In this document: piece after piece, positions 29,474 to 63,494 of the stretch | How the letters are laid out: each line of letters starts with the position of its first letter | Numbering within the stretch: the stretch's first letter is position 1 | Origin: a virus | Lineage: Duplodnaviria > Heunggongvirae > Uroviricota > Caudoviricetes | Direction: 5' to 3' (one strand) | Length of the DNA stretch: 64,000 nucleotides | IMG/VR virus record: IMGVR_UViG_3300005329_000001 | Notes under the pieces: model-generated | Told to the model about the DNA's origin: nothing | What the model saw: the letters and a program-made list of their open reading frames with translations, nothing else | Databases searched by the model: none | Made by a program: the position numbers and the translations under genes

Positions 29474-30892
29474 ATGCGCGGAATCGCAGGCTTCGTGGTG
29501 GATCAGTACGATGATGTTCGAGGCGAGGTGCTGGTCTCGCGATTCCCCACGGCAGAGACAATGCCGGAGTTCGTGAAGACGGCGCATCGCATGACGGCGG
29601 ACGAGAAGGAGACGATGCCGGACGACGCCTTCGCTCTCGTCCTCTTCGACCAGGGCACCAAGATGAAGAAGTTCGCCATGGTCGACAAGGGCAACACTGC
29701 CCTCTCCGTCGTCTACCTGCTCGAGCAGGGGCACCTTCTTCCTCCCGATGCCGTGAAGGTCGCGGCTTCGAACTTGATCGATGCCTGCGAGCACTACGAG
29801 CTCGAGATCCCAGAGAAGCTGAAGGAGGCGGCCAAGAACGGCGTCTCAGGCATTCCTGGGAAGGGCCAGACACCGTACGCTCGAGGAGCGAAGGTCAACA
29901 AGATCCAGTTCAATTCGCCCAAGACGGACAACGGGGCGTATCACGACAACCCAGAGCTCGGCAAGGACGAGGAGGATCACGACCTCAAGTCCCGAGTCAA
30001 CTACGACTCTCCGCAGGGGACGAACTTCATCCAGATCCCCCACTTCTCCACCAAGGAGACCATCAAGGACGACCACGCCGGCTCGACCGACAACATGAAG
30101 CAGGCGATGGTCAAGACCGCTGGCGCCTTCGGTGATGCCCCCGGCCAGGTGGTCGCCAAGCAGAAGGGCTGGCGCGAGGCCCCGCACATGGACATCTCTG
30201 GATGGGATCCTCGCCAGGCCTTCACCAACGTCGAGCCGGAGGCGGTCGAGACGCTCCTCCGAGGTCACTACCCGGTCGATACCTACGACCAGGTGAAGAC
30301 CGCATCGGCCTACTTCGACGAGAACTGGCAGCAGTTCGCAGCGCGCGATCGTCACACCTACTGCGTGAAGCTGGCGCAGAAGCTCGCCTCTCTGGGCCTG
30401 CCGATCTCGGAGGACATCGAGCGGTACGGCTCCACCACCTATGCGGCCGACGTCGACGAGATGACGAATGTCCGTCGCAACCTCGTCCCGGAGGAGTTCC
30501 GCTCGTCTCTCGACATGCTGCTCGAGAAGCGGGCCAGCGTGACGCCGGAGACCTTCGCCGAGGCTCTCAGCGACTTCGACCACATGACCAACCTCCACTT
30601 CCACTGGGGCACCAACCTCATGGACCCGTGGTACACCACCTTCGGCCCATCGAAGGAGAAGCTCGCCTCCGCGACCTGGACTTACGATGAGCTGGGAGCC
30701 AGGACCGACGAGGCCGAGCTCAAGAATCTGGCCATGAACGGCCACCATCTCGTCACCAAGACTTTCGGCGCCAAGTTCGCCGATGAGTTCTCCAAGTCGC
30801 CCAAGGCTTTCTTCGAGGCGCTACCCAAGCCGCAGAAGCTCGTCCTCGCTCGCATGGCGAGTGATCGTCGTTCCGCTACTGGCACGGAGTAA
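29474..30892 (+). CDS. Putative head/core protein with many K-x-A motifs
   Basis: VKTAH, VKVAAS, LKEAAK, VKTAGA, VKTASA, KLAQKLAS, EKRASV and EKLASA. First gene of the portal operon. Confidence 0.6.
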   Translation: MRGIAGFVVDQYDDVRGEVLVSRFPTAETMPEFVKTAHRMTADEKETMPDDAFALVLFDQGTKMKKFAMVDKGNTALSVVYLLEQGHLLPPDAVKVAASNLIDACEHYELEIPEKLKEAAKNGVSGIPGKGQTPYARGAKVNKIQFNSPKTDNGAYHDNPELGKDEEDHDLKSRVNYDSPQGTNFIQIPHFSTKETIKDDHAGSTDNMKQAMVKTAGAFGDAPGQVVAKQKGWREAPHMDISGWDPRQAFTNVEPEAVETLLRGHYPVDTYDQVKTASAYFDENWQQFAARDRHTYCVKLAQKLASLGLPISEDIERYGSTTYAADVDEMTNVRRNLVPEEFRSSLDMLLEKRASVTPETFAEALSDFDHMTNLHFHWGTNLMDPWYTTFGPSKEKLASATWTYDELGARTDEAELKNLAMNGHHLVTKTFGAKFADEFSKSPKAFFEALPKPQKLVLARMASDRRSATGTE

Positions 30893-30895
30893 TCA

Positions 30896-31447
30896 ATGGA
30901 CATCGAGACCTTCAAGGCGTTCGTTCGGCACTCCGCCGAGCGAGACGATGTGCCGGGGGACTATGTCGCCGTGAAGATGGCGGCGATGAAGATGTTCCCC
31001 AAGCTGGCGGCTGGGCTCGACTCGCATGCTCAGCTCGCACAGAGCGTCTACCACAACAACGGAGCCAATGCTCTCGGGCACTTAGCTCAGGCAAACCCGA
31101 CCCATCGGGGAGGGCTGCTTGGAGCCGTGAAGAAGCTGGCGCCCGCCGTTGGTGGAGTTCGGTCATCCGGGACCAACCCGCTTCGGGCCGCGGCTTCGGG
31201 CATCATCCACACCAAGCTGGCGAACCTTGGAGTTGCCGGAGCGGAGCTGGCAGGGCTTGGTGTCCTTGCTCGCCCAAGTGTGAAGGATCTCCGAAACCCA
31301 GCGATGGACCAGACGCACAAGTCACACGCCAAGTACGAACTCGCCGGATTGGGTATACTCGGAGCTCATCCTGCGTACGAGATCGGATCTCACTTCGCTG
31401 GTAAGCTGAGGCCGCTCGCAGCCCAGGCGACTCACATCATCCGCTAG
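30896..31447 (+). CDS. Putative virion internal protein, Ala/Gly/His-rich, with K-x-A motifs
   Basis: VKMAAMK, PKLAAG, TKLANL; hydrophobic GAELAGLGVLA and YELAGLGILGA repeats. Confidence 0.55.
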   Translation: MDIETFKAFVRHSAERDDVPGDYVAVKMAAMKMFPKLAAGLDSHAQLAQSVYHNNGANALGHLAQANPTHRGGLLGAVKKLAPAVGGVRSSGTNPLRAAASGIIHTKLANLGVAGAELAGLGVLARPSVKDLRNPAMDQTHKSHAKYELAGLGILGAHPAYEIGSHFAGKLRPLAAQATHIIR

Positions 31448-31455
31448 GAGAGCTC

Positions 31456-32391
31456 GTGAATAAGAGGCCGGACGAGGCGTTCTTCGAGAGCCTGCAAGAG
31501 ACGAAGAAGCAGAAGATCGCGGCCCCAGTAGGGGCAGTCCTCGACACGTCCGGTGTCTTCTCTCCACCAACACCGGTGTCTTCGAAGAACCTCTTCAGCC
31601 ACCCGGACGCTCATCCGGTTGTCTTGGATATGGCGCTGCTCAAGGTCTTCCAGGTTGAGTGGTTCGACTGGCTGTCCGATACGCTCTTCGCCGAAATCGA
31701 GCGGGAGTTCGATACGCACATCAACGCCGGCAACCGTCTCAAGATCATGGCGGCGAAGACGCTGCATGTGATCGATGCGTTCTGGGACCACTGGGAGGTC
31801 TTCGAGAAAGTCATTGCTGGGCTCAATGGCATCGTGCCGCAGGTGGCCCTTCTGCAGCCGCCCGATCTCGCCGCTCTCTATGCTGGGGTCGATATCGCCA
31901 GCGGCATCCGCCAAGAGACGTACAGCGACGAGGTGAAGCGCTATTGCGCCGCAGTCTTCCTGCATGAAGGCGTGACCTACGCCGCCCCTCCTCTCGACTT
32001 CTGCCAAGAGTACATCTCTCAGCCGATCTATCGCTGCCGCGACTGTGAGCAGACCGGCTCGGCACTTCCGCCGTTCGATGGTCACTGCCCGACCTGCACT
32101 CAGAAGTACGAACAGGACAAGGCCTTCTCCCTCAAGCCCGACCCGGACATGAAGGACAAGACCAAGGGCGTGAACCTCGAGTACCACCTCACCTACGAGT
32201 CTCAGCCGACCAAGAAGCGGTTCGAAGAGCTGAGCAAGCTTCCCGCTGAGCAGGCGGCAGACGCGATCCAGGAGACGGCCGAAGATGTCGAGTCGGCTCG
32301 CCTCATCATCGCCACCGACTTCATGAAGTACCGCTCGATGCAGCTCAAGACCCAGCTCGAGAGCCTCAAGGGCTGGTTGGAGGCATCATGA
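31456..32391 (+). CDS. Hypothetical virion-associated protein with Zn-binding CxxC pairs
   Basis: N-terminal AFFESLQETKKQKIAA; CRDC...CPTC. SD AGGAG before GTG. Confidence 0.6.
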   Translation: MNKRPDEAFFESLQETKKQKIAAPVGAVLDTSGVFSPPTPVSSKNLFSHPDAHPVVLDMALLKVFQVEWFDWLSDTLFAEIEREFDTHINAGNRLKIMAAKTLHVIDAFWDHWEVFEKVIAGLNGIVPQVALLQPPDLAALYAGVDIASGIRQETYSDEVKRYCAAVFLHEGVTYAAPPLDFCQEYISQPIYRCRDCEQTGSALPPFDGHCPTCTQKYEQDKAFSLKPDPDMKDKTKGVNLEYHLTYESQPTKKRFEELSKLPAEQAADAIQETAEDVESARLIIATDFMKYRSMQLKTQLESLKGWLEAS

Positions 32392-46539: not shown

Positions 46540-48558
46540 ATGAATCTCTTCCTCGATCAGGACTTCAAGCCGACCTTCGAGAAGGTGGCCATGCCGGTGA
46601 AGCTCGGTGACAACACCGAGAACTGGCAGCGGGAGATCGCATCGGAGATCTACAAGCAGCTCCCCTACCTGGCGGACTACTCGGTCAACGTGATGCTCGA
46701 TCGCGTGGATGCCCAGCGGGGCTACGCCTTCGGAGCTGCCGAAGTCACCAATCAGACGGATTCTCCTCTGCCTGATCAGCCGGAGAACTCGGTCAAGATC
46801 CCCATCATCGTCAAGGACCGGCTCATGCAGCCACTGGACGTGATGCTCGATGGCAACGAGGCTCTTCCTCTCAACGAACGCCGCCTGCGGGAGAAGCTCT
46901 TCCGCACGGCCGCCGTCGAGACGTCAACCCGCAAGCCCACCGATCAGGGCATGGTCGACCAGCTCTATCCGCCGATGCGTACCAATTACGGCTACGGCAA
47001 TGCCGTGGCGACTGGCGTTGGTGTTGGCGGCTTCGGCAAGCAGGCGTCAGCGAAGAAGCCCCTGTGCGAGGTGATTGCCTCGACCATCTCTGATCAACAG
47101 TACGAAGCCTTCCTCGAGAAGATCGCCTCCGACGAGGAGACCCGTCTTCTCTTCCTGAAGAACGCGTCGGTTCGGAAGATCTCGAACCGGATGGCGATGG
47201 TTCAGCACATGAGCGTCGAGAAGACGGCTTCGGCGCTGATCCACAGCATCAAGCCGACGGTCGTGCAGATCACCAAGCTCGCCTCGGGCAACTTCAAGGT
47301 GAAGTGGGCCAACGCCGGCGCCTTCGCTCCGCAGGAGATGCAGGCCTCGCCGGACCAGGCTGCCGCCATGGCTGGGCAGGACATGTCGAAAATGCAGCCA
47401 GGTCAGACCATGACGGTCACCACCCAGCGTGCTCAGAAGCAGGGCCTGGACGAGCCGGATGGGGCGCTCATCACTGAGTTCGGTGATTACGCTGTGAAGA
47501 ACGCGGACAGTGGCGAGACTCTGATGGGCACCGTGCTGCCTGTGGTCGACTTCCAGATGCAGCCACTTGAGTTCTTCGTCTTCACTGATGGCCACGGCGC
47601 CTATGGTGCTCAGGACGAGATCATCGGTGTGCGTCAGGAGGGACCTGGCGGCATGGCTCTCGAGGCGGCTCAAGGACAGCAGCCGCAGGGCGACGGCATT
47701 TTCGTCTACCACCCACAGGGTGGTGCCAAGCCATTCTCGACTCTTCCTCTCACCATCGAATCGACCTCGCAGGGCCCGGACGGGATGCTGCAGTACATGG
47801 TCAGCGACGTCTTCGGGGCGCAGATGACCCTCGTCCCCACTCCTGGTATCTCTGCATTCGAGCCGATGGGAGAGGGCGATATGTTCGCCATCCCGGACGA
47901 CATGCAGTGGGTGCCCCTGAGCGGAGAGCCGGTTCACCTGGCCAAGGGTGACACCCCGGACTCGGCGGCCGATGCCAAGAGCTTGCCGAACGAAGTGGCC
48001 GTCAAGTCGACGGGCCCAGGAGAGACGTCTCTCGAGGGCATGCCGGTCATGAAGGTTGCCCGAGACAACCGCTGGTTCTTGAAGACGGCGGAGGCAACGT
48101 TCCTGCTCTGCGCCATGGGCCTTACCCAGGACGAAGCGCAGGAGGTTATCAAGGAAGCGGAGCGTCGCCCCAATAAGCTGGTGAAGCTTGCAGGCCTGAA
48201 CCCCATCGTGCCGCTCGGCGACATCCACGCGAATGCAGAGAAGAAGGCTGCGGCGCTGCTCGAGCAATTCGATTACAGCTTCTGGCGCCGGGACTTGGTG
48301 AAGGAGGCGGCTGCGCTCGAGGACACCGAGACGGCCGACAAGATTCTCGCCATGAACTTCATCAACCCGGAGAACATCTCCATCTTCGCCAGCTACCTCC
48401 CCGACCTCGACACGACATCGACCAAGCTCGCCGAGATGCTGATCGCCTCACGTCTCGGCCTCAACCAGGTCCCGACTGGTGCCGCCGAGCGTGCCATGAA
48501 GAACATGGAAGAGGTGATCGGCGGCCTTCGCTCGCTCCAGCAGAAGGAGCTCGTCTAA
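46540..48558 (+). CDS. Large putative head/core protein with many K-x-A motifs
   Basis: FEKVAM, GKQASA, EKIASD, EKTASA, TKLASG, VKLAGL, EKKAAA and VKEAAA. Confidence 0.6.
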   Translation: MNLFLDQDFKPTFEKVAMPVKLGDNTENWQREIASEIYKQLPYLADYSVNVMLDRVDAQRGYAFGAAEVTNQTDSPLPDQPENSVKIPIIVKDRLMQPLDVMLDGNEALPLNERRLREKLFRTAAVETSTRKPTDQGMVDQLYPPMRTNYGYGNAVATGVGVGGFGKQASAKKPLCEVIASTISDQQYEAFLEKIASDEETRLLFLKNASVRKISNRMAMVQHMSVEKTASALIHSIKPTVVQITKLASGNFKVKWANAGAFAPQEMQASPDQAAAMAGQDMSKMQPGQTMTVTTQRAQKQGLDEPDGALITEFGDYAVKNADSGETLMGTVLPVVDFQMQPLEFFVFTDGHGAYGAQDEIIGVRQEGPGGMALEAAQGQQPQGDGIFVYHPQGGAKPFSTLPLTIESTSQGPDGMLQYMVSDVFGAQMTLVPTPGISAFEPMGEGDMFAIPDDMQWVPLSGEPVHLAKGDTPDSAADAKSLPNEVAVKSTGPGETSLEGMPVMKVARDNRWFLKTAEATFLLCAMGLTQDEAQEVIKEAERRPNKLVKLAGLNPIVPLGDIHANAEKKAAALLEQFDYSFWRRDLVKEAAALEDTETADKILAMNFINPENISIFASYLPDLDTTSTKLAEMLIASRLGLNQVPTGAAERAMKNMEEVIGGLRSLQQKELV

Positions 48559-48573: not shown

Positions 48574-48687
48574 ATGAGTAAGCCGGATGCCGATCGTACG
48601 AAGGAAATGGACGACATCCAAGCAGAGATCCGAAAGGTCGTCGAGCGCATCGACGCTTCATCGAAGAAGAAGACCAAGGAGCCGTGA
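48574..48687 (+). CDS. 37-aa charged peptide (not in ORF track)
   Basis: MSKPDADRTKEMDDIQAEIRKVVERIDASSKKKTKEP; SD AGGAGG; GTGA coupling to the next gene. Confidence 0.6.
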   Translation: MSKPDADRTKEMDDIQAEIRKVVERIDASSKKKTKEP

Positions 48688-49517
48688 CGACACCTCTCTT
48701 CACCGCCTTCTCCGACGAGTTCCAGCAGATCCAGCGACTGAAGCTCGCGAGTCCGCTTGGTGTCGCAAAGTCGTGGTTGAAGGGGCAGTACGCACAGCTC
48801 GGCAACGCCGCGGCCCAGGCATCCCAAGGACACCAGTCCTTCAGCCCGATGCTTGGTCAGCCCGCTCCACCGATCGTCGGAACGATCACCAACTTCCTCG
48901 CCAACAAGCTGCCGACCCCAAAGAAGCCACCGGGGCCGGTCATCGAGGGAGCCAAGCGCCTTCTTAGCTCTAAGCCGGCGAAGACGATCATCCCCCTCAT
49001 CGATCAAACCAGCGAGTTCTTGAAGCTCGCACAGGTCGAGCCCTACCAACAGAAGACACAATACTCATGCTCAGCGGCGTGTCTGAAGGCCGTGCTCGAG
49101 CACTGGGGAGCCGATCGCTTTGCCGAGCACGAGATCATGTACGCCATCGGCGTGCGCGATCGCGGCGGTGCGGAGGTGGACGAGATCACCCGTGGAGCTC
49201 AGAAGCTCGGCTTCGACGCGTACGACAAGTGCTTCTCGTCCCTCGATGAGGCGAAGGCAATCACCGATCAGGGCATCCCGATCATTGCCGACTTCCAAAG
49301 CTTCAACAACCCTGGCAAGGGGCACTACGTCGTCATCACTCAGATCGACGACAATGTGGTCCATCTGATGGACCCCAACACCGATGGCAACCAGCGTGTT
49401 ATTACACGCGCTGAGTGTGAGCAGCGGTGGTGGGACAAGACCATGGCCCCGCCACACAACCTGATGGTGAAGTGGGGAGTGGTGGTCACCCCAAGGAGTG
49501 GCGATGGGACTCGGTGA
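48684..49517 (+). CDS. C39-family cysteine peptidase behind a K-x-A-bounded leader
   Basis: QQKTQYSCSAACL (Cys), GHYVV (His) and LMDP (Asp). Leader begins AFSDEF...KLAS, and EFLKLAQ directly precedes the domain. Confidence 0.85.
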   Translation: MTTPLFTAFSDEFQQIQRLKLASPLGVAKSWLKGQYAQLGNAAAQASQGHQSFSPMLGQPAPPIVGTITNFLANKLPTPKKPPGPVIEGAKRLLSSKPAKTIIPLIDQTSEFLKLAQVEPYQQKTQYSCSAACLKAVLEHWGADRFAEHEIMYAIGVRDRGGAEVDEITRGAQKLGFDAYDKCFSSLDEAKAITDQGIPIIADFQSFNNPGKGHYVVITQIDDNVVHLMDPNTDGNQRVITRAECEQRWWDKTMAPPHNLMVKWGVVVTPRSGDGTR

Positions 49518-49980
49518 CTTCATCAAGACTAACCCACGTGCCTTCCTCACCGGCGTTGGGGCAGTTGCTGGCGGTGCTGGCGGAGCCGTCCGTGGATTGA
49601 CGATGAAGTCCTGGCATGACCAGTGGCGAGATGTAACGCACCACTATGATGCCGAGCAGAGAAAGAAAAACGCGTGGAAGATGGGGCTCGCTGGCGGAAT
49701 CGCTGGCGGTCTCGTCGGGTACACAACTCCCGTTCATACAGTGCCGGCCTCAGCACTCCCCAAAGCAGTCCCGTCGGCCTTCAAAGGCGTAAAGTCGCAG
49801 AAGGACGTGAAGAAGCTCGTCCGCGAGTTCTCGCTCAAGCACCATCCAGATCGCGGCGGTGATGCCAAGAAGTATCGAGAGTTCATCGACGCCTACAACG
49901 CGTTCAAGAAGCATCCCAAGTTCCCGAAGACGGCCATGGTGGCCTTTGTGGACGAGATGCTCCACATCCTCAATCGATGA
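49498..49980 (+). CDS. Membrane-anchored J-domain (DnaJ-type) protein
   Basis: Two Gly-zipper segments, then VKKLVREFSLKHHPDRGGD...YREFIDAYNAF (HPD). C-terminal KTA-MVAFVDEMLHIL. Start may be 49504. Confidence 0.85.
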   Translation: MAMGLGDFIKTNPRAFLTGVGAVAGGAGGAVRGLTMKSWHDQWRDVTHHYDAEQRKKNAWKMGLAGGIAGGLVGYTTPVHTVPASALPKAVPSAFKGVKSQKDVKKLVREFSLKHHPDRGGDAKKYREFIDAYNAFKKHPKFPKTAMVAFVDEMLHILNR

Positions 49981-51434
49981 GTCGTCTCGCTACCAACCTC
50001 GGGAAGATCGCGGGCGTGGCAGGGCTACAGCCCCATCAGCAGCGTGTTGTCGATCGTATCCAGCAGCCTGACCAGCCGGGCTTGGTGGTGGCGCACGGTC
50101 TCGGTTCTGGAAAGACGAGAACTGCGATCGAGGCTCAGAAGGCTCTCAAGATGCCGTCGGACGTCATCGTTCCGGCAGCACTCCAGGCGAATTACCGCAA
50201 GGAGCAGAAGAAGTGGTTGGGCGGAGCCAAGCAGAAGGCTCATGTCCAGTCGATGCAGAACATCACGAGGAAGCGTCAGGCTCCGACGCAGCCCCTGATG
50301 ATCGTCGACGAGGCTCACCGTGCTCGTGAGCCTCAGACGCAGACCTACAAGACGCTGGCGAAGAACGAGGCCGAGAAGCGCCTGCTTCTGACCGGCAGTC
50401 CATTCTACAACCGCCCGTCTGACATTGCGCCACTCGTAGACCTCGCCTCTGGAGCGCCGTTGCTTCCGACGGACCCGGAGCGGTTCAATCAGAGGTTCAT
50501 TCGTCAGAAGAAGATTAGCCCTGGCATCATCAATCGACTCCGCGGCCTCAAGCCGGGTGTCGTTGAAGAGCTGAACCCCAAGCGCCAGGAAGAGCTTCAA
50601 GGCATCTTCGACAAGTGGGTCGACTATCACCCGTCTGCGAAGGAAGACTTCCCCGAGGTCAATCGTGAGGACGTCAAGGTGCCGATGGACCCGAAGCAGC
50701 TCGAGGTCTACGACACCATCCTGAAGAAGGCGCCACCTTGGGTGTCGGCCAAGATCCGCTCTCGTCTGCCTCCCAGCAAGCGGGAATCCCAGCAGCTCAA
50801 CGCCTTCTTGGGGGCCAGTCGGCAAATCGCCAACTCCACTGCTCCCTTTCAGGAGGACGTGAAGAAGGTCTATGAGCCCAAGCTGGACGAAGCCTTCTCT
50901 CGGTTGCAGCAAGAGCTTGCCGCGAACGAGAGGGCAAAGGCTGTCGTCTACTCCAACTACCTCGGCGCAGGCATCAATCCCTACGCCCAGAGGCTTCAAG
51001 AAGCTGGCATCCCCTACGGCGAGTTCACCGGTGAGATGCCGAAGTCGAAGAGGGACGAGCTCGTCAGGCAGTACAACGAGAACAAAATTCGCGCCCTCTT
51101 GCTCTCTTCGGCCGGTGGAGAAGGTCTCGATCTGCAGGGCACTCGACTCATCCAGATGCTAGAGCCTCACTGGAATGATGAGAAGTTGAAGCAGGTTGAG
51201 GGTCGTGGCATCCGTTACAAGAGCCACGCGATGCTTCCCCCAGAAGAGCGGAATGTGAAGGTCCAGCGGTTCTTGGCGACTCGCCGTCCAACCGGCGTTC
51301 TCGAGAAGCTGCGCCTCAAGAAGCCAGGTGGATCGGTCGACGAGTACCTTGCCGCCAGGGCCCAGGAAAAGGAAAACTTGATCCAACAATTCCGGGCCCT
51401 ACTTGAACAACAGCAGCAGCCTGCAGCACAATAG
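49977..51434 (+). CDS. SNF2-related SF2 helicase/ATPase resembling poxvirus D6/D11 (NPH-I)
   Basis: AHGLGSGKT, IVDEAH, LLTGSP, VVYSNY, GGEGLDL, EPHWN and QVEGRGIRYKSH. N-terminal GKIAG. Confidence 0.8.
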   Translation: MSRLATNLGKIAGVAGLQPHQQRVVDRIQQPDQPGLVVAHGLGSGKTRTAIEAQKALKMPSDVIVPAALQANYRKEQKKWLGGAKQKAHVQSMQNITRKRQAPTQPLMIVDEAHRAREPQTQTYKTLAKNEAEKRLLLTGSPFYNRPSDIAPLVDLASGAPLLPTDPERFNQRFIRQKKISPGIINRLRGLKPGVVEELNPKRQEELQGIFDKWVDYHPSAKEDFPEVNREDVKVPMDPKQLEVYDTILKKAPPWVSAKIRSRLPPSKRESQQLNAFLGASRQIANSTAPFQEDVKKVYEPKLDEAFSRLQQELAANERAKAVVYSNYLGAGINPYAQRLQEAGIPYGEFTGEMPKSKRDELVRQYNENKIRALLLSSAGGEGLDLQGTRLIQMLEPHWNDEKLKQVEGRGIRYKSHAMLPPEERNVKVQRFLATRRPTGVLEKLRLKKPGGSVDEYLAARAQEKENLIQQFRALLEQQQQPAAQ

Positions 51435-54622: not shown

Positions 54623-55057
54623 GTGAACAAGATCCGCTACCCACGAAGAACTAAGACTTGTCCACGGTGCAAGAAAGACAAGCCGGCTACGGCTAAGTTC
54701 TTCTGTCCAGACAAGCGAGGCTATATTTGCTGGTGCAGGCGCTGCTCGGCCGACCGAGCGACTGAGTGGGGAAAGACCAATCATCGTCGACAAACGGATA
54801 CTCGATTCAAGAGACGCTACGGCCTCTCCATAGAAGAGTTTGATGCACTAGTCCTACAGCAGAACGGCAAATGCGCCATCTGCGGAGAGGCCCCAAAGGC
54901 CGTGAAGAGCAAACTTCAGGGATTCAACGTGGACCACGACCACAAGACGAAGAAAGTCCGGGGGCTGCTTTGCTTCGGGTGCAACACTGGAATCGGCTGC
55001 CTGAGGGATAACCCTTCCCGGCTGCGGTCTGCTGCCGACTACCTCGAGAGGATGTAA
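54623..55057 (+). CDS. Endonuclease VII-type HNH endonuclease with N-terminal Zn finger
   Basis: CPRCK...CRRC and YGLSIEEF...QNGKCAICG...VDHDH.T.KVRGLLCFGCNTGIG. Confidence 0.9.
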   Translation: MNKIRYPRRTKTCPRCKKDKPATAKFFCPDKRGYICWCRRCSADRATEWGKTNHRRQTDTRFKRRYGLSIEEFDALVLQQNGKCAICGEAPKAVKSKLQGFNVDHDHKTKKVRGLLCFGCNTGIGCLRDNPSRLRSAADYLERM

Positions 55058-56898
55058 TGGCTTACGAGATCGTGGAGGATCTCCACTCCTACCAACGCGA
55101 CCGAGAGCGTCGCGTAATGCTGCTGGATCATGAGGGTCTCTACTCTGGTCCCGAGTTCCCGGAAGAGTGGGATTACGAGCCGGATCCTGGCAACGAGTAC
55201 GGAGCACAGGACTTCAAGGACCTCCAGGATCTCGTCTCGGTGCTCCCTTCGGAGTTCACCGAATTCGCGATCATGATGCCGGACAAAGAGCATCAGACCT
55301 ACAAGAACTACTCCTTTGCCGAGCGCGAGTACCTCCGCCAGATCTACGACACCTCATCGAAGCGGACCCTGCTGAAGTGCGGTCGACAGGTCGAGAAGTC
55401 GACCATGCTCGGCAACAAGCTCCTTTCCTACTCCTGCATCGTCACTGCCCTCAACAGCCTCTACGTCTCGCCGACCAACCAACAATCGAAGGTTTTCTCG
55501 CAGGACCGTCTGAAGGAGCCGATCGAGACCAGTCCATTCTTGAAGAGCTGGACGACCACCAAGCTCTCGGACAACGTCTTCCTCAAGAAGTTCATCAACC
55601 GCTCCCAGATCACTCTCCGCTACGCCTTCATGAACGCCGACCGCTGCCGCGGCATCCCGGCGGACATCATCTGCATCGACGAGCTCCAGGACATCCTCAC
55701 CGACAACATCCCCGTTATCGAGCAGTGTGCTTCGCACTCCGTCATCAATATCGGCGGTGAGTCGCACAAGGGCGGTGTCTTCATCTTCTCTGGCACCCCC
55801 AAGAGCCTCGACAACACAATCGAGGCCTATTGGCAGCAGTACTCCACCCAGAACGAATGGGTGGTCCCCTGCCACGCCCACTCTATGTTTACGGGCGACG
55901 GCAAGATCACCAAGGTCCACTGGAACATCCTCACCGAGGACCACATCGGGGCAAAGAGCCTCATCTGCGACAAGTGCGGCGGCCCCATCGACGCCAAGGA
56001 TCCGATGGCGCAGTGGGCGTCTCTGAACCCAGACATCATCAATCAGATCCCCAAGCCCTATGAGGGCTTCCGCATCCCGCAGCTCATGGTGCCGTGGATT
56101 TCGCACGACGACATCATCCAGAACCTCAAGACCTACCCGCGCGATCGTTTCTACAATGAGGTGCTCGGCCTCTCGTACGATTCGGGCACTCGACCCCTCA
56201 CTCAGCAGGACTTGATCGACAACTGCTCGCAGTACCTCTCACTTGATCCAGCCTCTCTCGAGAAGTACAGGAACCACTTTGGCGGTTCGACACCCATCTA
56301 CGGCGGCATCGACTGGATGGGTGGCGGTGAGCACTCCTTCACCGTCTTCACGATGGGCGCCTATCTGGACGGCAAGTTCCAGGTCTTCTACTACCGTCGA
56401 TTTGAGGGGCGCGAGGCTGAGCCTCAGACGCAGATGGATGAGATCATCGAGACCATCCTCAAGTGGAACGTGCGTAGGATCGGGGTCGACTACGGCGGCG
56501 GCTTCTGGCCGAACGACAAGCTCACCAACCGCTTCGGCCTCAACCGCATCGTTAAGTACCAGTACTCGAATCCGGGCGAGAAGATTCGCTGGGAGGACGG
56601 ACTCAAGCGATTCCTCGTCAACCGTAGCGAAGTGATGAGCGACATCTTCAACGCCATCAAGCGGCGCAACGTCTTCCGCTTCCCGCAGTGGGACCAGTTC
56701 AAAGCGCCATTCGGCGGCGACTTCCTGAACATCTTCGCTGAGTACAACGAGCAGCGGCGCATGATCGAGTACAAGAAGTCGCCCAACGCCAGCGACGACT
56801 CGTTCCACTCCACCCTCTTGTGCTTCATCGTCTCGATGCTGGACTTCCCTCGTCCAGATATCGTGGCGCCGGCTATCACTCCCAGGGCGAATAGCTAA
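55057..56898 (+). CDS. terL: Terminase large subunit
   Basis: LLKCGRQVEKST (Walker A), ICIDELQD (Walker B), SGTPK (motif III), Zn-type insertion PCHAH...CDKC, nuclease GGIDW and DDSFHS. Confidence 0.85.
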   Translation: MAYEIVEDLHSYQRDRERRVMLLDHEGLYSGPEFPEEWDYEPDPGNEYGAQDFKDLQDLVSVLPSEFTEFAIMMPDKEHQTYKNYSFAEREYLRQIYDTSSKRTLLKCGRQVEKSTMLGNKLLSYSCIVTALNSLYVSPTNQQSKVFSQDRLKEPIETSPFLKSWTTTKLSDNVFLKKFINRSQITLRYAFMNADRCRGIPADIICIDELQDILTDNIPVIEQCASHSVINIGGESHKGGVFIFSGTPKSLDNTIEAYWQQYSTQNEWVVPCHAHSMFTGDGKITKVHWNILTEDHIGAKSLICDKCGGPIDAKDPMAQWASLNPDIINQIPKPYEGFRIPQLMVPWISHDDIIQNLKTYPRDRFYNEVLGLSYDSGTRPLTQQDLIDNCSQYLSLDPASLEKYRNHFGGSTPIYGGIDWMGGGEHSFTVFTMGAYLDGKFQVFYYRRFEGREAEPQTQMDEIIETILKWNVRRIGVDYGGGFWPNDKLTNRFGLNRIVKYQYSNPGEKIRWEDGLKRFLVNRSEVMSDIFNAIKRRNVFRFPQWDQFKAPFGGDFLNIFAEYNEQRRMIEYKKSPNASDDSFHSTLLCFIVSMLDFPRPDIVAPAITPRANS

Positions 56899-59410: not shown

Positions 59411-60040
59411 ATGAACAGCACGCAGCTCATGGAGAAGGTCGCGGAAGTCGCGCCCGAGACGTACGACTTCATCATGCAGACCCGCGGCGAGATCAGCGAG
59501 AGCCCGTGGAAGGACGAGTTCCTCGAGGAGTTCGACGGCATCCTGAAGAAGGCTGCCATGGACTGGAAGTCGATCGGCTCGTCTGTCGGGCAAGGAGGTC
59601 TTGCCATGGCCAAGGGTCTGGGTGCCACGGCACTCGGCGGCATCGGCCTGGCGCTCGCTGGTGACGCCTATGATGCCACTCGTCGAGCCATCACCAAGAC
59701 CCGCAACTACAAGCGGATGATGGCGTCGAACCCAGATCTGAAGGACAAGCCGGCGCACCAGGTCCAGGCAATCTTCTCCACCCTTCACCGCTTCAACCCG
59801 GACTTCTCGGGAGACCCGGTCGTCTCTGGAAGCTTCGTCCGTCAGCATGTCGACATGGCCCAGAGCGAAGAAGGTGTGGGTGCGGTCGGTCTCGACGCCA
59901 TGAAGGCCATCGTCGAAGGGCGCAAGGGTATCAATGAGAGCCGCCGGTTGCCCAAGCCGGAGATGCTCAGGATGCCCGATCGCGAGATGGAGATGCTCCA
60001 GAAGTCCAAGCTTCGCCACGACCTGGGCGCCAAGAAGTAA
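59411..60040 (+). CDS. Putative virion protein with acidic leader, KKAA site and Gly-zipper
   Basis: EKVAE; EFLEEFDGILKKAAM; GLAMAKGLGATALGGIGLALAG. Confidence 0.6.
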   Translation: MNSTQLMEKVAEVAPETYDFIMQTRGEISESPWKDEFLEEFDGILKKAAMDWKSIGSSVGQGGLAMAKGLGATALGGIGLALAGDAYDATRRAITKTRNYKRMMASNPDLKDKPAHQVQAIFSTLHRFNPDFSGDPVVSGSFVRQHVDMAQSEEGVGAVGLDAMKAIVEGRKGINESRRLPKPEMLRMPDREMEMLQKSKLRHDLGAKK

Positions 60041-60043
60041 GCG

Positions 60044-62449
60044 ATGCTCGTCAAGCAGGTTCAGTTCTTCGGCAAGAACGATGAGGGGCAGATCTTCTGC
60101 CAGCCCTTGCTCGATGACGGCTTGGTAAAGACTGCCTCTGCCTCATCGCGAGCGAACCTGCATCCTCAGATCGCCGACTTCGTCAGGACTGTTCGCCCCA
60201 GCAAGCACGGCATCTACGTCCTGGTGAACGCCATGGGCGCCGGCGAGATCTGGGGCTCCAACATCAATGGCGACCACTTCCCTGAGAAGGAGCTGATCCA
60301 CTCTCCGAAGGACTGGGAGAAGCTTCCCGCCACGCGGATGAAGGAGATCGGCAAGAGCTGGGAGTACGGCTTCCCCACCTTCATGGGGGCGCATCCGTAC
60401 AAGCACCACGTCAACAAGGACTCGTCGCGGGCATTCGGCTCGGTCGAGCTCGCCGCGTGGAACCCAAAGATGCATCGCGTGGAGCTGGTGGTCTATCTTG
60501 ACCGCGAGCTCTGCAAGCGTTTCGACGCTCAGGATGTGATCGAGAAGATCGAGCGGGGAGAGTTCCCGGACGTCTCAATGGGCTGCAAGGTGCCCTACGA
60601 CGTCTGCTCGATCTGTCAGCACCGGTCGAAGACTCCGAAGGACTACTGCCACCACGCGAAGAGCATGATGAATGTCATCCTGCCAGATGGCAGGAAGGTG
60701 TTCGTCTACAACCCTCGCCCTCGCTTCTTCGACATCTCCTTCGTCTTCATCGGAGCCGACAAGACGGCCAAGGTCATGGCCAAGCTTGCGTCAAAGGGCA
60801 ATCAGGTCTGCATGGGTGAGTACTGCACCATTCCTCGACTCAGCGTCGATGTTGGTGAGCAGTTCTCGAAGTTCGCCGGTGAGCAAGACCCTACGGCCCC
60901 GCTTCGTGAGGAGCATCCTACCTGGCTCGGCAATCACCAGGACGGGATGTACGACCCGACCTTCAACGACTTCATCGGCAACAAGTCTCGTACTCAGATC
61001 ATTCAAGAGACGAAAGCTGCCAAGCCGGCATTCGAGGCGCGGCTCTATCCTCCGGCTCAGCTCGAGGCAAATGAGTCGTATGACGCGCTCGTCAACCTCG
61101 ACGCTGCTCGTGAGAAGACAGCTTCAGTCAAGACGGCCAATGACCCAATTCAGAAGTTCATCCACGTCCAAGGCATCCCGATCATGCTGGAGTGGTTGAA
61201 GGGTCAGACGCGTAAGTACTACTCAAAGGCCGATCCTTCAAAGGTGACCTACCAGAAGCTGATGAAGGCCGATTACGGCTACATCCCAGCGACCGTAGAT
61301 GCCGATGGCGAGCAGCTCGATGTCTATGTGGGGCCGAGCCGCGATTCAGAGTTCGTCTTCATGATCAATCAGCTCAAGGACGACGGCTCGTTCGATGAGC
61401 GAAAGGTCATGATCGGCTATCGCGATGAGGCGGCGGCAAAGAAGAGCTATCTCGACCATATGCCTGAAAGGCGTCTTGGGCAGGTGTCGAGGACGACAAT
61501 GGGTGAGTTCAAGAAGACCCACCTTGTCAGTGCTCGAAAGGCACGCAAGACCCGCGATGCCGAGGCAGTGAAGATCGCGTCAGCGACGTGCGGATGCCAC
61601 GGACTTGGAGATGATTGCGGCGGTACGGCTGAGAAAGTCGCGCACGCCGTCTTTCCAGGTACGCGTAATTCTGAAAAATCCGCTTCCCATAGGAAGCTGA
61701 GTGAGATCATAAAAACAATACCGGCAGGTCCTTTTTCGAAAGAGACATTGCCAAGACTGGAGAAAGGGGAGAGCTCGATCCCAAACAAGGCGCTGGACGA
61801 GATGGGCAAAATGGATCTTACCGAAGCCCTCTCAACCCCCGCTATGATGGGCATCGTTCTTAAGCCCCATGAGTTTCAGAGGGTGATGCTGGTGCGAATC
61901 GGAGAGAAGCCGCTGGCGGATGAACTCGACAGGAAGGGGGAGGTCTTCGGGCCTTCTTCGGACGTCGACGAGTCCCTGCAGGTGAATCCCGATCGCATCG
62001 ATCGTGCTCTCAAAGACCTCCTTCAGGCTCTGGGCATGGTGGGTGAGCGGTCAGTAGCCGCCACTCCTCTTGCTCGTCGAATGGAGCGTCTTGAAGCACG
62101 CCGTGCCGATCCGCGGAAGAGCGTCGAGAAGACCGCCTCCGCCGATCCCCTCATGAAGAAGCTGTCAGCCGCCTACAACGGCTACCGGCGCAGCATCGTG
62201 AAGAAGGCCACCGCCATCCAGAAGTTCCTCGTCTCCGACCCCCAGCTCGCTCCCGAGTCATTCGGTAGCAGCATGGTGCAGGCCTTCGCCGGTGGGGTCG
62301 ACAAGACGGCCAGCTCGAGCGTGTTCAGCCCCGACTCGCTCGCATACCTGACCGGGGCGCACCACACGGACCGGGCCATCCATATCGCCGATCAAGGCGT
62401 TCGGGTGTCCCTCGCCCAGACGGGCGCACTCGCAGAGGCGCTGTACTAG
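60044..62449 (+). CDS. Prohead (maturation) protease polyprotein with inserted InPase-like domain
   Basis: The N-terminal NGDHF...HPYKHH...VELV...DVSMGC...CSIC...FFDISFVFIGAD fits a phage prohead serine protease. The segment GIPIMLEW...YGYI...DADGEQLDVYVGP...FDERKVMIGY resembles the InPase family. About 10 K-x-A motifs. Confidence 0.7.
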   Translation: MLVKQVQFFGKNDEGQIFCQPLLDDGLVKTASASSRANLHPQIADFVRTVRPSKHGIYVLVNAMGAGEIWGSNINGDHFPEKELIHSPKDWEKLPATRMKEIGKSWEYGFPTFMGAHPYKHHVNKDSSRAFGSVELAAWNPKMHRVELVVYLDRELCKRFDAQDVIEKIERGEFPDVSMGCKVPYDVCSICQHRSKTPKDYCHHAKSMMNVILPDGRKVFVYNPRPRFFDISFVFIGADKTAKVMAKLASKGNQVCMGEYCTIPRLSVDVGEQFSKFAGEQDPTAPLREEHPTWLGNHQDGMYDPTFNDFIGNKSRTQIIQETKAAKPAFEARLYPPAQLEANESYDALVNLDAAREKTASVKTANDPIQKFIHVQGIPIMLEWLKGQTRKYYSKADPSKVTYQKLMKADYGYIPATVDADGEQLDVYVGPSRDSEFVFMINQLKDDGSFDERKVMIGYRDEAAAKKSYLDHMPERRLGQVSRTTMGEFKKTHLVSARKARKTRDAEAVKIASATCGCHGLGDDCGGTAEKVAHAVFPGTRNSEKSASHRKLSEIIKTIPAGPFSKETLPRLEKGESSIPNKALDEMGKMDLTEALSTPAMMGIVLKPHEFQRVMLVRIGEKPLADELDRKGEVFGPSSDVDESLQVNPDRIDRALKDLLQALGMVGERSVAATPLARRMERLEARRADPRKSVEKTASADPLMKKLSAAYNGYRRSIVKKATAIQKFLVSDPQLAPESFGSSMVQAFAGGVDKTASSSVFSPDSLAYLTGAHHTDRAIHIADQGVRVSLAQTGALAEALY

Positions 62450-62501
62450 AGATGGAGTCCATCTCGGAGACGACACGCTTTTGTCGAGAAGGAGAAATTA
62501 C

Positions 62502-63494
62502 ATGAGCATGGATACGTGGCTGGCCCAGGCGTACAACACCAACGGCGCGAGCGAGGACCTCGAGAAGATCGCTCAGGCCGAGATGGCGCAGAACATGGCC
62601 CAGCAGGAGGGCCTGGATCTGTCGAACCTCTCGCCCGAGCAGATCGAGGCTCTTGGCCAGGAAGTTCTCGGGCCGCAGGGCCAGGGACAGCAGCCGCAGG
62701 GTGCCGCTCCGGGCGCTCCTCAGCAGCCCGGCGTTCCCCAGCAGGGAATGCAGCCCCAGCAGCCGCAGGCTCCTGGTGCCGAGGGCGGTGGTGAGCTGAC
62801 CGAAGAGCACGTGCAGGAAGCCCAGCAGGTGCTGGCCAACCCGCAGGCCTACGACCCGGCGATCGTCCAGGAAGCCCAGGCGATCATGCAGGTCGTCGAG
62901 CAGATGCAGGCTCAGCAAGCCGGTCAGCCAGGTCCCGAGATGGCCAAGGTCGCCGAGGCCCAGGCCAAGTTCGAGGAGGCCGACTTCCTCGGTCGCGTCA
63001 TGGCGCACGCCTTCAATCAGGAGTCGGAGAAGATCGCCGCCTCCAAGCAGGCGAACATGATGGGCGCCGCAGGTGGCCACCTGAAGCACCTCGGCCAGCA
63101 GGCTGCTCACCACATGGGCGCTGCCGCCGGCGCCGCCAAGCACCACGCTGGCAAGGCGATGGGAGCCGCGGGCGGTCACTTCGCCAAGCACCCGGGTCAT
63201 GCTGCTGCCGCCGGCGCGGTCGGTGGTGCGGCGGCCATGCACGGCGCTCATCACATGATGAACAAGGAAGCCACCGTCGCCGCGATCGAGAAGGCGGCGA
63301 TGCAGCAGGCCGCCAACATCCTGCAGGCCAACGGCATCGACCCGGCGACTGGTCAGCCGGCCCAGCAGGCCGCTCCGCAGATCGCTCCGGCGGGCGCGGT
63401 CCCGGCTCCCCAGCAGAACTCGCAGCAGGCGCTCGGTGAGCTCGTGGAGAAGCGCGCTCATCAGATCCTGCGGGGGCTCGGCTACAACATCTGA
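62502..63494 (+). CDS. Scaffold-like protein, Q/P/A/H-rich, with K-x-A motifs
   Basis: Directly follows the protease; SD AAGGAG. EKIAQ, AKVAE, EKIAASKQAN, NKEAT and EKAA. Confidence 0.55.
   Translation: MSMDTWLAQAYNTNGASEDLEKIAQAEMAQNMAQQEGLDLSNLSPEQIEALGQEVLGPQGQGQQPQGAAPGAPQQPGVPQQGMQPQQPQAPGAEGGGELTEEHVQEAQQVLANPQAYDPAIVQEAQAIMQVVEQMQAQQAGQPGPEMAKVAEAQAKFEEADFLGRVMAHAFNQESEKIAASKQANMMGAAGGHLKHLGQQAAHHMGAAAGAAKHHAGKAMGAAGGHFAKHPGHAAAAGAVGGAAAMHGAHHMMNKEATVAAIEKAAMQQAANILQANGIDPATGQPAQQAAPQIAPAGAVPAPQQNSQQALGELVEKRAHQILRGLGYNI

Follow-up and report, generated by a model that had tools for sequence, protein, structure and literature searches.

The 64,000-nucleotide stretch of DNA analysed here (the window) corresponds to bases 53814-117813 of a 210,330-bp soil phage genome in the IMG/VR virus collection (IMGVR_UViG_3300005329_000001), which has direct terminal repeats and is rated complete. 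At window positions 60044..62449, on the plus strand as are all features of this gene given below, lies a single open reading frame (ORF) of 801 amino acids that combines an N-terminal protease domain, a variable slot occupied by an InPase domain, and a constant C-terminal module (C-module). This architecture, the slot included, is solid. The gene is probably a head-assembly polyprotein of the protease-plus-assembly-domain type, in which a disordered stretch accepts folded cargo and which would be cut at K-x-A motifs, with the InPase kept in the head and delivered. The ORF sits in the head module, between a GpA-type large terminase gene (55057-56898) and the major capsid gene. Three small ORFs separate it from the terminase, and it is followed by a Q/A-rich ORF of 337 aa and then by ORFs of 156, 517 and 158 aa. 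The major capsid gene, which matches phrog_2522 (6e-9), is the fifth gene 3' of the protease ORF and lies about 4 kb downstream, just beyond the window. Prohead protease genes hold such a place among the head genes, 5' of that for the capsid protein, and the gene order is shared with Salmonella phage Arash, Vibrio phage D69 and Bacillus phage G.

An AlphaFold2 model of the full-length protein, built from 40 homologues, contains three confident folded blocks: residues 36-236, residues 366-499 (predicted local distance difference test score, pLDDT, >90) and a helical block at residues 565-741. Between and around them the pLDDT falls below 50, namely in residues 1-35, most of 237-365, most of 500-564, and 742-757. 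The initial annotation had described one gene at 60044-62449 with a series of named landmarks, and every one of these was found at the coordinate it had been given. The protease part, said to close at DKTAKVMAKLAS, does so at residues 239-250; the insert said to run from KFA to EKTASVKTA begins at residue 276 (nt 60869) and reaches residues 357-365 (nt 61112); VKIASA, given as the close of the InPase-like domain, occupies residues 509-514 (K510 at nt 61571); and the remainder of the chain, described as helical with more sites, is indeed helical and has sites at 545, 696 and 754.

The first 31 residues (60044..60136) form a propeptide-like segment with pLDDT below 50 that ends in LVKTA, where K29 and A31 are invariant in the 40 homologues. 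The protease domain follows (residues 32-249, with the confident fold at 36-236; 60137..60790) and ends in AKLA (K247-L-A249). When this domain was folded alone (predicted template modelling score 0.71) and compared by VIA-align with 48,161 representative PDB chains, the best fold match was T4 gp21 (5jbl_A; Z 10.1, root-mean-square deviation 2.9, 134/165 residues, model range 29-236). The proteases of varicella-zoster virus (Z 6.3) and human cytomegalovirus (Z 4.7) were the runners-up, with unrelated rows at about 5 or less. In a Foldseek search of the PDB, three 5jbl chains ranked first with probabilities of 0.94-0.99, and the BFVD matches include annotated prohead proteases as well as gp19 of phage G. 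The sole sequence link to a protease family is phrog_18299 (head maturation protease), which matches the domain at 2.4e-6. The candidate catalytic histidine (H121-H122; 60404..60409) and the candidate nucleophile (S178 in DVSMG; 60575..60577) are invariant in the 40 homologues. Read by eye, IRAGWIPGVSSRG of T4 gp21 corresponds to IERGEFPDVSMGC around S178, and the two share the motif I-x-x-G-x-x-P-x-V-S. If the catalytic residues of T4 gp21 are taken to be H85 and S140, the His-to-Ser spacing is 56-57 residues here compared to 55 in gp21. On these fold-based grounds the N-terminal domain is a serine protease of the gp21/assemblin fold, in agreement with the earlier reading of the N-terminus as a protease. 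The V-S-x-G motif had also suggested an HK97-type (S78) assignment, which was dropped because the fold matches gp21/assemblin and PF04586 gives no match. Searches of the whole genome with PF03420 (S77), PF04586 (S78) and PF00574 (ClpP) returned no matches, and no other candidate maturation protease was detectable with them. The domain additionally carries a C188-x2-C191...C202-x-H204 cluster (60605..60655), in which the three cysteines are invariant and H204 is conserved in at least 90% of the 40 homologues. This zinc-type motif has no counterpart in the T4 gp21 sequence and probably marks a structural zinc site that is confined to the present clade of proteases.

Homologues of the protease domain are found in cultured phages, with identities of 40% in Arash Gp222 (491 aa), 39% in VPHD69_0270 of phage D69 (471 aa) and 32% in gp19 of phage G (300 aa). 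All three lie upstream of their own capsid genes and have K-x-A at the matching N-terminal and post-protease positions. They differ from the protein described here in that they have no InPase and their C-terminal part is different or missing. While gp19 of phage G is referred to as a head maturation protease in one paper (PMC12484599), Arash Gp222 is listed merely as a structural protein, and the word "protease" is absent from the Arash paper (PMC10585845). Gp222 was detected in purified Arash particles with 16 peptides, 365 spectra and 85% sequence coverage (PMC10585845). The Arash locus (L003; Salmonella phage Arash 140815-153399) holds Gp222 together with head proteins that bear K-x-A. Since Gp222 is a homologue of the protease and K-x-A occurs in these head proteins, the protease annotation missing from the published genome can be supplied.

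The InPase cassette (residues 366-512; 61139..61579) begins directly after VKTA (363-365) and ends with VKIA (510-512), and its fold is modelled at pLDDT >90. The Pfam family InPase (PF18823) matches residues 371-492 with an E-value of 2.8e-30 and 105.4 bits against a cut-off of 26.8, which upholds the proposal that an InPase-like passenger occupies this part of the chain; it is the only PF18823 domain in the genome. The classical Pyrophosphatase model of Pfam gives a weak echo on the same stretch, and the PHROG families that match it comprise minor head proteins, virion structural proteins and DarB-like polyvalent proteins. PDB fold matches of the block are family I pyrophosphatases. Among solved structures, the nearest in sequence is the C-terminal part of the Pa193 portal (9b41_L, E 3e-22), and a profile search of PDB sequences matched the InPase part and no other. 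In the alignment to solved family I pyrophosphatases, YGYIPATVDADGEQLDV pairs with YGYVPNTLSEDGDPLDV, DGEQLDV with DGDPLDV, and DDGSFDER with DDGGIDAK. Every InPase-bearing row of the family alignment retains E383, R390, Y392, Y411, G412, Y413, D421, G422, E423, D426, D447, D451, E452 and K454, so that the acidic metal-binding residues expected of PF18823 are present. Judged by its sequence, the domain looks competent. A catalytically dead InPase that serves in the head as a structural module of OB (oligonucleotide/oligosaccharide-binding) fold, for DNA contact, spacing or plugging, is very improbable. Such a role would suit the absence of the beta-hairpin of cellular enzymes from the phage InPase clade (PMC5512222) and the equivalent region of the Pa193 portal, which lies inside the capsid, disordered and without density (PMC11456595). 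It would also suit the Glu that replaces the second Asp of the D-x-D-x-x-D signature throughout the InPase family, at the position that we take to be the general base Asp67 of the E. coli enzyme. However, this replacement is conservative, ten of the residues listed above (E383, R390, Y411, D421, E423, D426, D447, D451, E452 and K454) are retained in every InPase row, and the cupin and RRM domains that can share the slot point to effectors rather than spacers.

The boundaries of these blocks coincide with K-x-A motifs. The 801-aa protein contains eight copies of K-x-A-[SG], compared to a mean of 0.85 and a maximum of 5 in 5000 shuffles, and in the head block [LIVMF]-x-K-x-A occurs 27 times against 7 for the reversed form, an excess of about four-fold, while the ratio in the rest of the genome is about 1:1. 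Seven of the eight copies (at 29, 247, 276, 358, 510, 545 and 754) lie within segments of pLDDT below 50, and the eighth (at 696) lies in a loop of pLDDT 61-67. Downstream of the invariant K29/A31 the next residue is free (S, A, E, D, N, Q, G or F), Ala-Ser being the commonest putative scissile pair, and K247/A249, K510/A512, K545/A547 and K754 reach a conservation of 90% or more despite the variable linkers that surround them. The initial annotation had the passenger bracketed by putative KxA cleavage sites, and this holds across the family: all 86 of the 86 InPase carriers have K-x-A at both ends of the domain. The upstream copy is at most 6 residues away in 84/86 and often reads K-x-A-N-D-P-I, the downstream copy stands at the end of the last helix of the domain, and inside the InPase fold the frequency of K-x-A is at about chance level. 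Other passengers are flanked in the same way (a slash within a motif marks the putative scissile bond). The RRM of homologue P0064 (373-442) has FTKKA/S (367) six residues upstream and LTKKA/E (459) downstream, the cupin of P0075 is preceded by FTKKA/Y, and P0104 has LIKTA/E and GEKQA/A. The motif also occurs in other head proteins, as in the capsid protein of the phage itself (GKEKIA/EV at residue 24), the Arash capsid protein (GLVKEA/GA at 27), and Arash gp220, gp223 and gp225 with 7-10 copies each.

K-x-A is therefore a real, conserved and localised signal, as far as can be read from the sequences, and cleavage at it is likely. A cut after the Ala is proposed because Lys and Ala are fixed and the following residue is free, as in the A/S cleavage sites of assemblins. 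A similar layout is familiar from T4, in which the capsid protein and the internal proteins targeted to the capsid lose their short leaders to gp21. Alternatively, K-x-A might be a docking motif for the inner capsid wall, a scaffold or an exosite of the protease, with the 88-kDa protein remaining uncut inside the head and the InPase tethered to it. This is improbable. The 85% coverage of the Arash homologue does place most of the chain in particles (PMC10585845), but retained fragments would likewise give high coverage, and although the many copies in Gly/Ala-rich head proteins are explicable by repeated docking, docking does not readily account for a motif that stands exactly at every domain boundary, in disordered linkers. 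Likewise, in the capsid protein and many cargo proteins the motif lies 10-30 residues into the chain, which is the classic gp21-type propeptide layout, and a fixed K and A with a free following residue is what would be expected for P3/P1 recognition. Cleavage at K-x-A is consequently preferred here, and because the same motif is present on the capsid leader and on a dozen other head or cargo proteins, it looks like the general maturation code of the clade.

Leaders of this type are seen across the genome, in which many proteins start with 10-30 residues that end in K-x-A. Examples within the window are at 46540-48558, 48684-49517, 49977-51434, 59411-60040 and 62481-63494, and further examples are at genome positions 31349-32175, 62737-63309 and 86201-86809. 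Several leaders share an amphipathic helix of the form F..EL.KIA (AFEDELKKIA, AFADELAKIA, FGVELLKIA), which looks like a capsid-targeting tag that would be removed by the protease. Two proteins that have such an N-terminal leader and match no family are unusually rich in the motif: that at window 46540-48558 (672 aa) has 11 copies of [LIVMF]-x-K-x-A and 16 of K-x-A in total, and that at window 29474-30892 (472 aa) has 4 and 12, respectively. Both are candidates for heavily processed internal head proteins.

The contents of the slot differ widely among homologues. A search with residues 1-270 (E <= 0.001) returned 1788 long-form proteins of 440-1402 aa, most of which carry PF18823 and many of which come from contigs 180-220 kb long; there are few short forms, most of them fragments. 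Among the 120 best of the 1788, the protease ends near residue 240, and the stretch from there to the C-module ranges from 53 to about 650 aa. It consists of a bare linker of 80-120 aa, an InPase, an RRM plus InPase (P0064), a cupin plus InPase (P0075), DUF5661 (P0098), DUF6321 with a DUF5661-like piece (P0104), or unassigned inserts. Homologues whose protease domains are 60-75% identical differ in slot content. When 98 homologues were placed on a tree by their constant modules alone, the tree required a minimum of 15 changes of slot content, and its well-supported branches require 9 or more switches between presence and absence of InPase. Most IMG/VR relatives at 42-55% identity are without InPase, and five long forms (1077-1172 aa) carry it. 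The suggestion that this region is a swappable cargo slot is well supported by these data, in which different passengers are found between the same constant modules. Both computational checks put forward in the initial annotation thus came out in its favour, and none of the outcomes that it named as refuting was seen: InPase is matched, the insert varies, and the N-terminus has a protease fold.

Five complete IMG/VR relatives whose protease gene is without InPase were checked for the cargo elsewhere; three have no InPase anywhere and two encode it at another site. One of the two (G004; L093 1411-1911, minus strand) has a stand-alone InPase of 166 aa with the C-terminal end LGFLDEFGKIQEA, which resembles the N-terminal tag helices of cargo proteins and may be a C-terminal version of the tag. 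The other (G005; L094 1465-3045, minus strand) encodes a second kind of InPase vehicle, a 526-aa polyprotein that starts ...GLLDELQKLA/AS, has EKQA/G midway and RQKLA/F directly before a C-terminal InPase, and also contains a DUF5661-like segment and an unassigned middle domain.

The distribution of the InPase bears on whether it is delivered at all. It is conceivable that the protein is cut and the InPase is not delivered, acting late in the producing cell or being discarded with scaffold fragments, so that the fusion would merely ensure late co-expression with head genes, for instance to remove pyrophosphate (PPi) that arises in replication, transcription or nucleotide metabolism. The dispensability of the domain, absent from three of the five complete relatives and replaced by a bare linker in many homologues, fits such a role, as does the stand-alone 166-aa enzyme, and yet this explanation is unlikely. 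InPase is repeatedly fused to head-internal proteins, namely the portal, MuF, the leader-tagged polyprotein and the protease; a folded 17-kDa domain would hardly escape a closed shell; and the exact bracketing by sites in 86/86 suggests intact release rather than degradation. Fusions of InPase to portal and MuF head proteins are known (PMC5512222), and together with the InPase on the second polyprotein they fit a head-loaded cargo and not a cytoplasmic enzyme.

The slot is bordered by disordered linkers and by the C-module. The linker before the InPase (residues 250-365; 60791..61138) has C256 and C261, K-x-A at 276, 358 and 363, and pLDDT mostly below 50, and its length and sequence vary among homologues. 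Behind the InPase, a Cys-rich linker with pLDDT below 50 (residues 513-547; 61580..61684) contains C516, C518 and C525, K-V-A at 531-533 and K-S-A at 545-547; its C-x-C...C cluster and a KSASH motif are conserved, also in homologues with a bare linker. The constant helical C-module (residues 548-801; 61685..62446), with confident helices at 565-741 and K-T-A at 696-698 and 754-756, is retained as a unit of ~250 aa in about 110/120 homologues, independent of slot content. It matches no Pfam or PHROG family, has no usable match in a protein atlas and no BLASTP similarity to Arash Gp222, and in fold searches with the full-length model no listed row covered it. By analogy with known protease-scaffold polyproteins, it most likely brings the polyprotein into the procapsid. 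Two conserved Cys clusters border the slot, C-x-G-x-x-C before it (60809-60826; C256, C261) and C-x-C...C after it (61589-61618; C516, C518, C525). Both flanks keep their clusters even where the slot is a bare linker, and zinc might hold the clusters together as a clasp where the slot begins and ends. The 517-aa head protein encoded just past the edge of the window has similar C-T-C-x5-C-x2-C clusters.

The following sequence of events is proposed. The constant C-module would bring the polyprotein into the procapsid, and after procapsid assembly the protease would cut at L/V-x-K-x-A, probably after the Ala. The products would be a 31-residue N-terminal piece, a 218-residue protease, linker fragments, an InPase of ~147 residues (366-512), a 35-residue Cys-rich piece and three C-module fragments (cuts at 698 and 756). 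Too large to leave the closed shell once folded, the InPase would remain beside the DNA and pass into the host when the phage infects it. Its substrate there may be PPi, which would favour early transcription or replication, or nucleotide-derived signals; both are roles that Iyer et al. (2017) proposed for InPase in polyvalent proteins, as PPi clearance or as an attack on nucleotide signals (PMC5512222). The window also encodes a fused beta/beta' RNA polymerase of 2118 aa. RNA polymerase subunits are the most abundant proteins of Arash particle preparations (PMC10585845), which fits a virion polymerase but is weak evidence for one. The suggestion in the initial annotation that PPi removal could aid a co-ejected RNA polymerase is supported only indirectly, by the detection of both these subunits and Gp222 in purified Arash particles (PMC10585845).

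Besides the Glu in the InPase signature, several points weigh against this reading. No Pfam protease model matches the protease domain at E <= 1, and aligning the family profile to T4 gp21 with hhalign yielded no match (probability 0.1), so the protease assignment comes from the fold, one PHROG match and a short motif. Because of this lack of a match at the sequence level, the domain is named for the gp21 fold and is not placed in Pfam S77. The scissile bond is a guess from invariant positions and the A/S precedent of assemblins, and cutting is inferred for every member of the family. The function of the C-module is assigned solely from its position, its constancy and the analogy to pUL26 and gpO. 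The InPase cargo is dispensable, since three of the five complete relatives with an InPase-less protease have none. Finally, the Arash particle proteome lists 116 proteins, ribonucleotide reductases among them (PMC10585845), and for this reason presence in it is weak proof of packaging.

Parts of this arrangement are known from other systems. With T4 gp21 and the herpesvirus assemblin clan the protein shares the protease fold, a similar His/Ser spacing and the I-x-x-G-x-x-P-x-V-S motif, and the short N-terminal leaders of its putative capsid and cargo substrates end in a recognition motif, as do those processed by gp21. In T4, the internal proteins IPI-III and Alt carry capsid-targeting leaders, and the recognition motif of gp21 is L/I-x-E. 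The phage protease differs in its putative K-x-A specificity, in its extra C-x2-C...C-x-H site and in matching neither Pfam S77 nor gp21 by sequence, and its cargo lies within its own chain, whereas that of T4 is made as separate leader-tagged proteins. Protease-scaffold polyproteins are represented by pUL26 of herpesviruses, which has a release and a maturation site with A/S bonds, by gpO of phage P2, and by C/Nu3 of lambda. As in these, an N-terminal protease and a C-terminal part, here a putative assembly part, are joined in one chain, with a putative release site directly after the protease (KLA 247-249) and a further site ~45 residues from the C-terminus (KTA 754-756). Unlike in these, the chain has a variable slot that takes up enzymatic or binding domains of unrelated kinds, and the C-module has no detectable scaffold similarity.

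A third parallel is with polyvalent proteins (Iyer et al., 2017; PMC5512222) and with the InPase-portal fusions of Pbunavirus (BcepF1; Pa193 gp19, PDB 9B41), in which InPase of the same clade (PF18823) likewise rides on a head-internal protein. Assemblin-like peptidases have been reported solely at the C-termini of polyvalent proteins (PMC5512222), while here the phage's own maturation protease is involved, and it stands at the N-terminus. Polyvalent proteins also carry 2-15 cargo domains, as opposed to one here (two in P0064 and P0075), and in the present family the boundaries carry a defined K-x-A. Neither a K-x-A code nor a slot embedded in a protease is described in the polyvalent-protein paper (PMC5512222), and in the literature searched no account came up of a protease fused to a pyrophosphatase or of K-x-A as a cleavage motif.

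If K-x-A is the cut site, it provides a rule by which the mature head proteome, and the proteins that are injected, could be predicted across the 1788 long-form homologues, which belong to uncultivated jumbo phages, and the missing maturation protease of Arash and D69 would be identified. It would also reveal a simple natural way of loading a capsid, in which a foreign protein is inserted into the linker of the protease. The contents of the slot hint at the activities wanted at the first moment of infection, such as hydrolysis of PPi or nucleotides, RNA binding and a cupin enzyme, and the debated role of InPase in polyvalent proteins becomes testable in a small, defined construct. In a broader and more tentative view, which is possible but somewhat doubtful, a large clade of ~200-kb soil and aquatic phages would use a K-x-A-cutting protease of gp21 fold whose polyprotein is a plug-in dock. 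Its inserts would be packed at the copy number of the protease, released and injected, and InPase, RRM, cupin and others would constitute a library of early effectors.

Two further observations concern the integrity of the ORF in relatives. In one metagenomic contig (Ga0642625_00055, 209,966 bp; L007 4001-6184), protease, InPase and C-module appeared to be naturally split into three ORFs (P0125). This candidate was rejected since the split is due to two frameshifts in that single contig, and it is probably an assembly error or a pseudogene. In addition, six homologues (P0013, P0022, P0086, P0093, P0113 and P0114) bear inteins of ~380 aa with homing endonuclease domains inside the protease domain. 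Four of the six are inserted at DVSMG/C (the slash here marking the insertion site), one at G71/S and one at V187/C, and insertion at DVSMG/C fits the habit of inteins of homing into functionally critical motifs.

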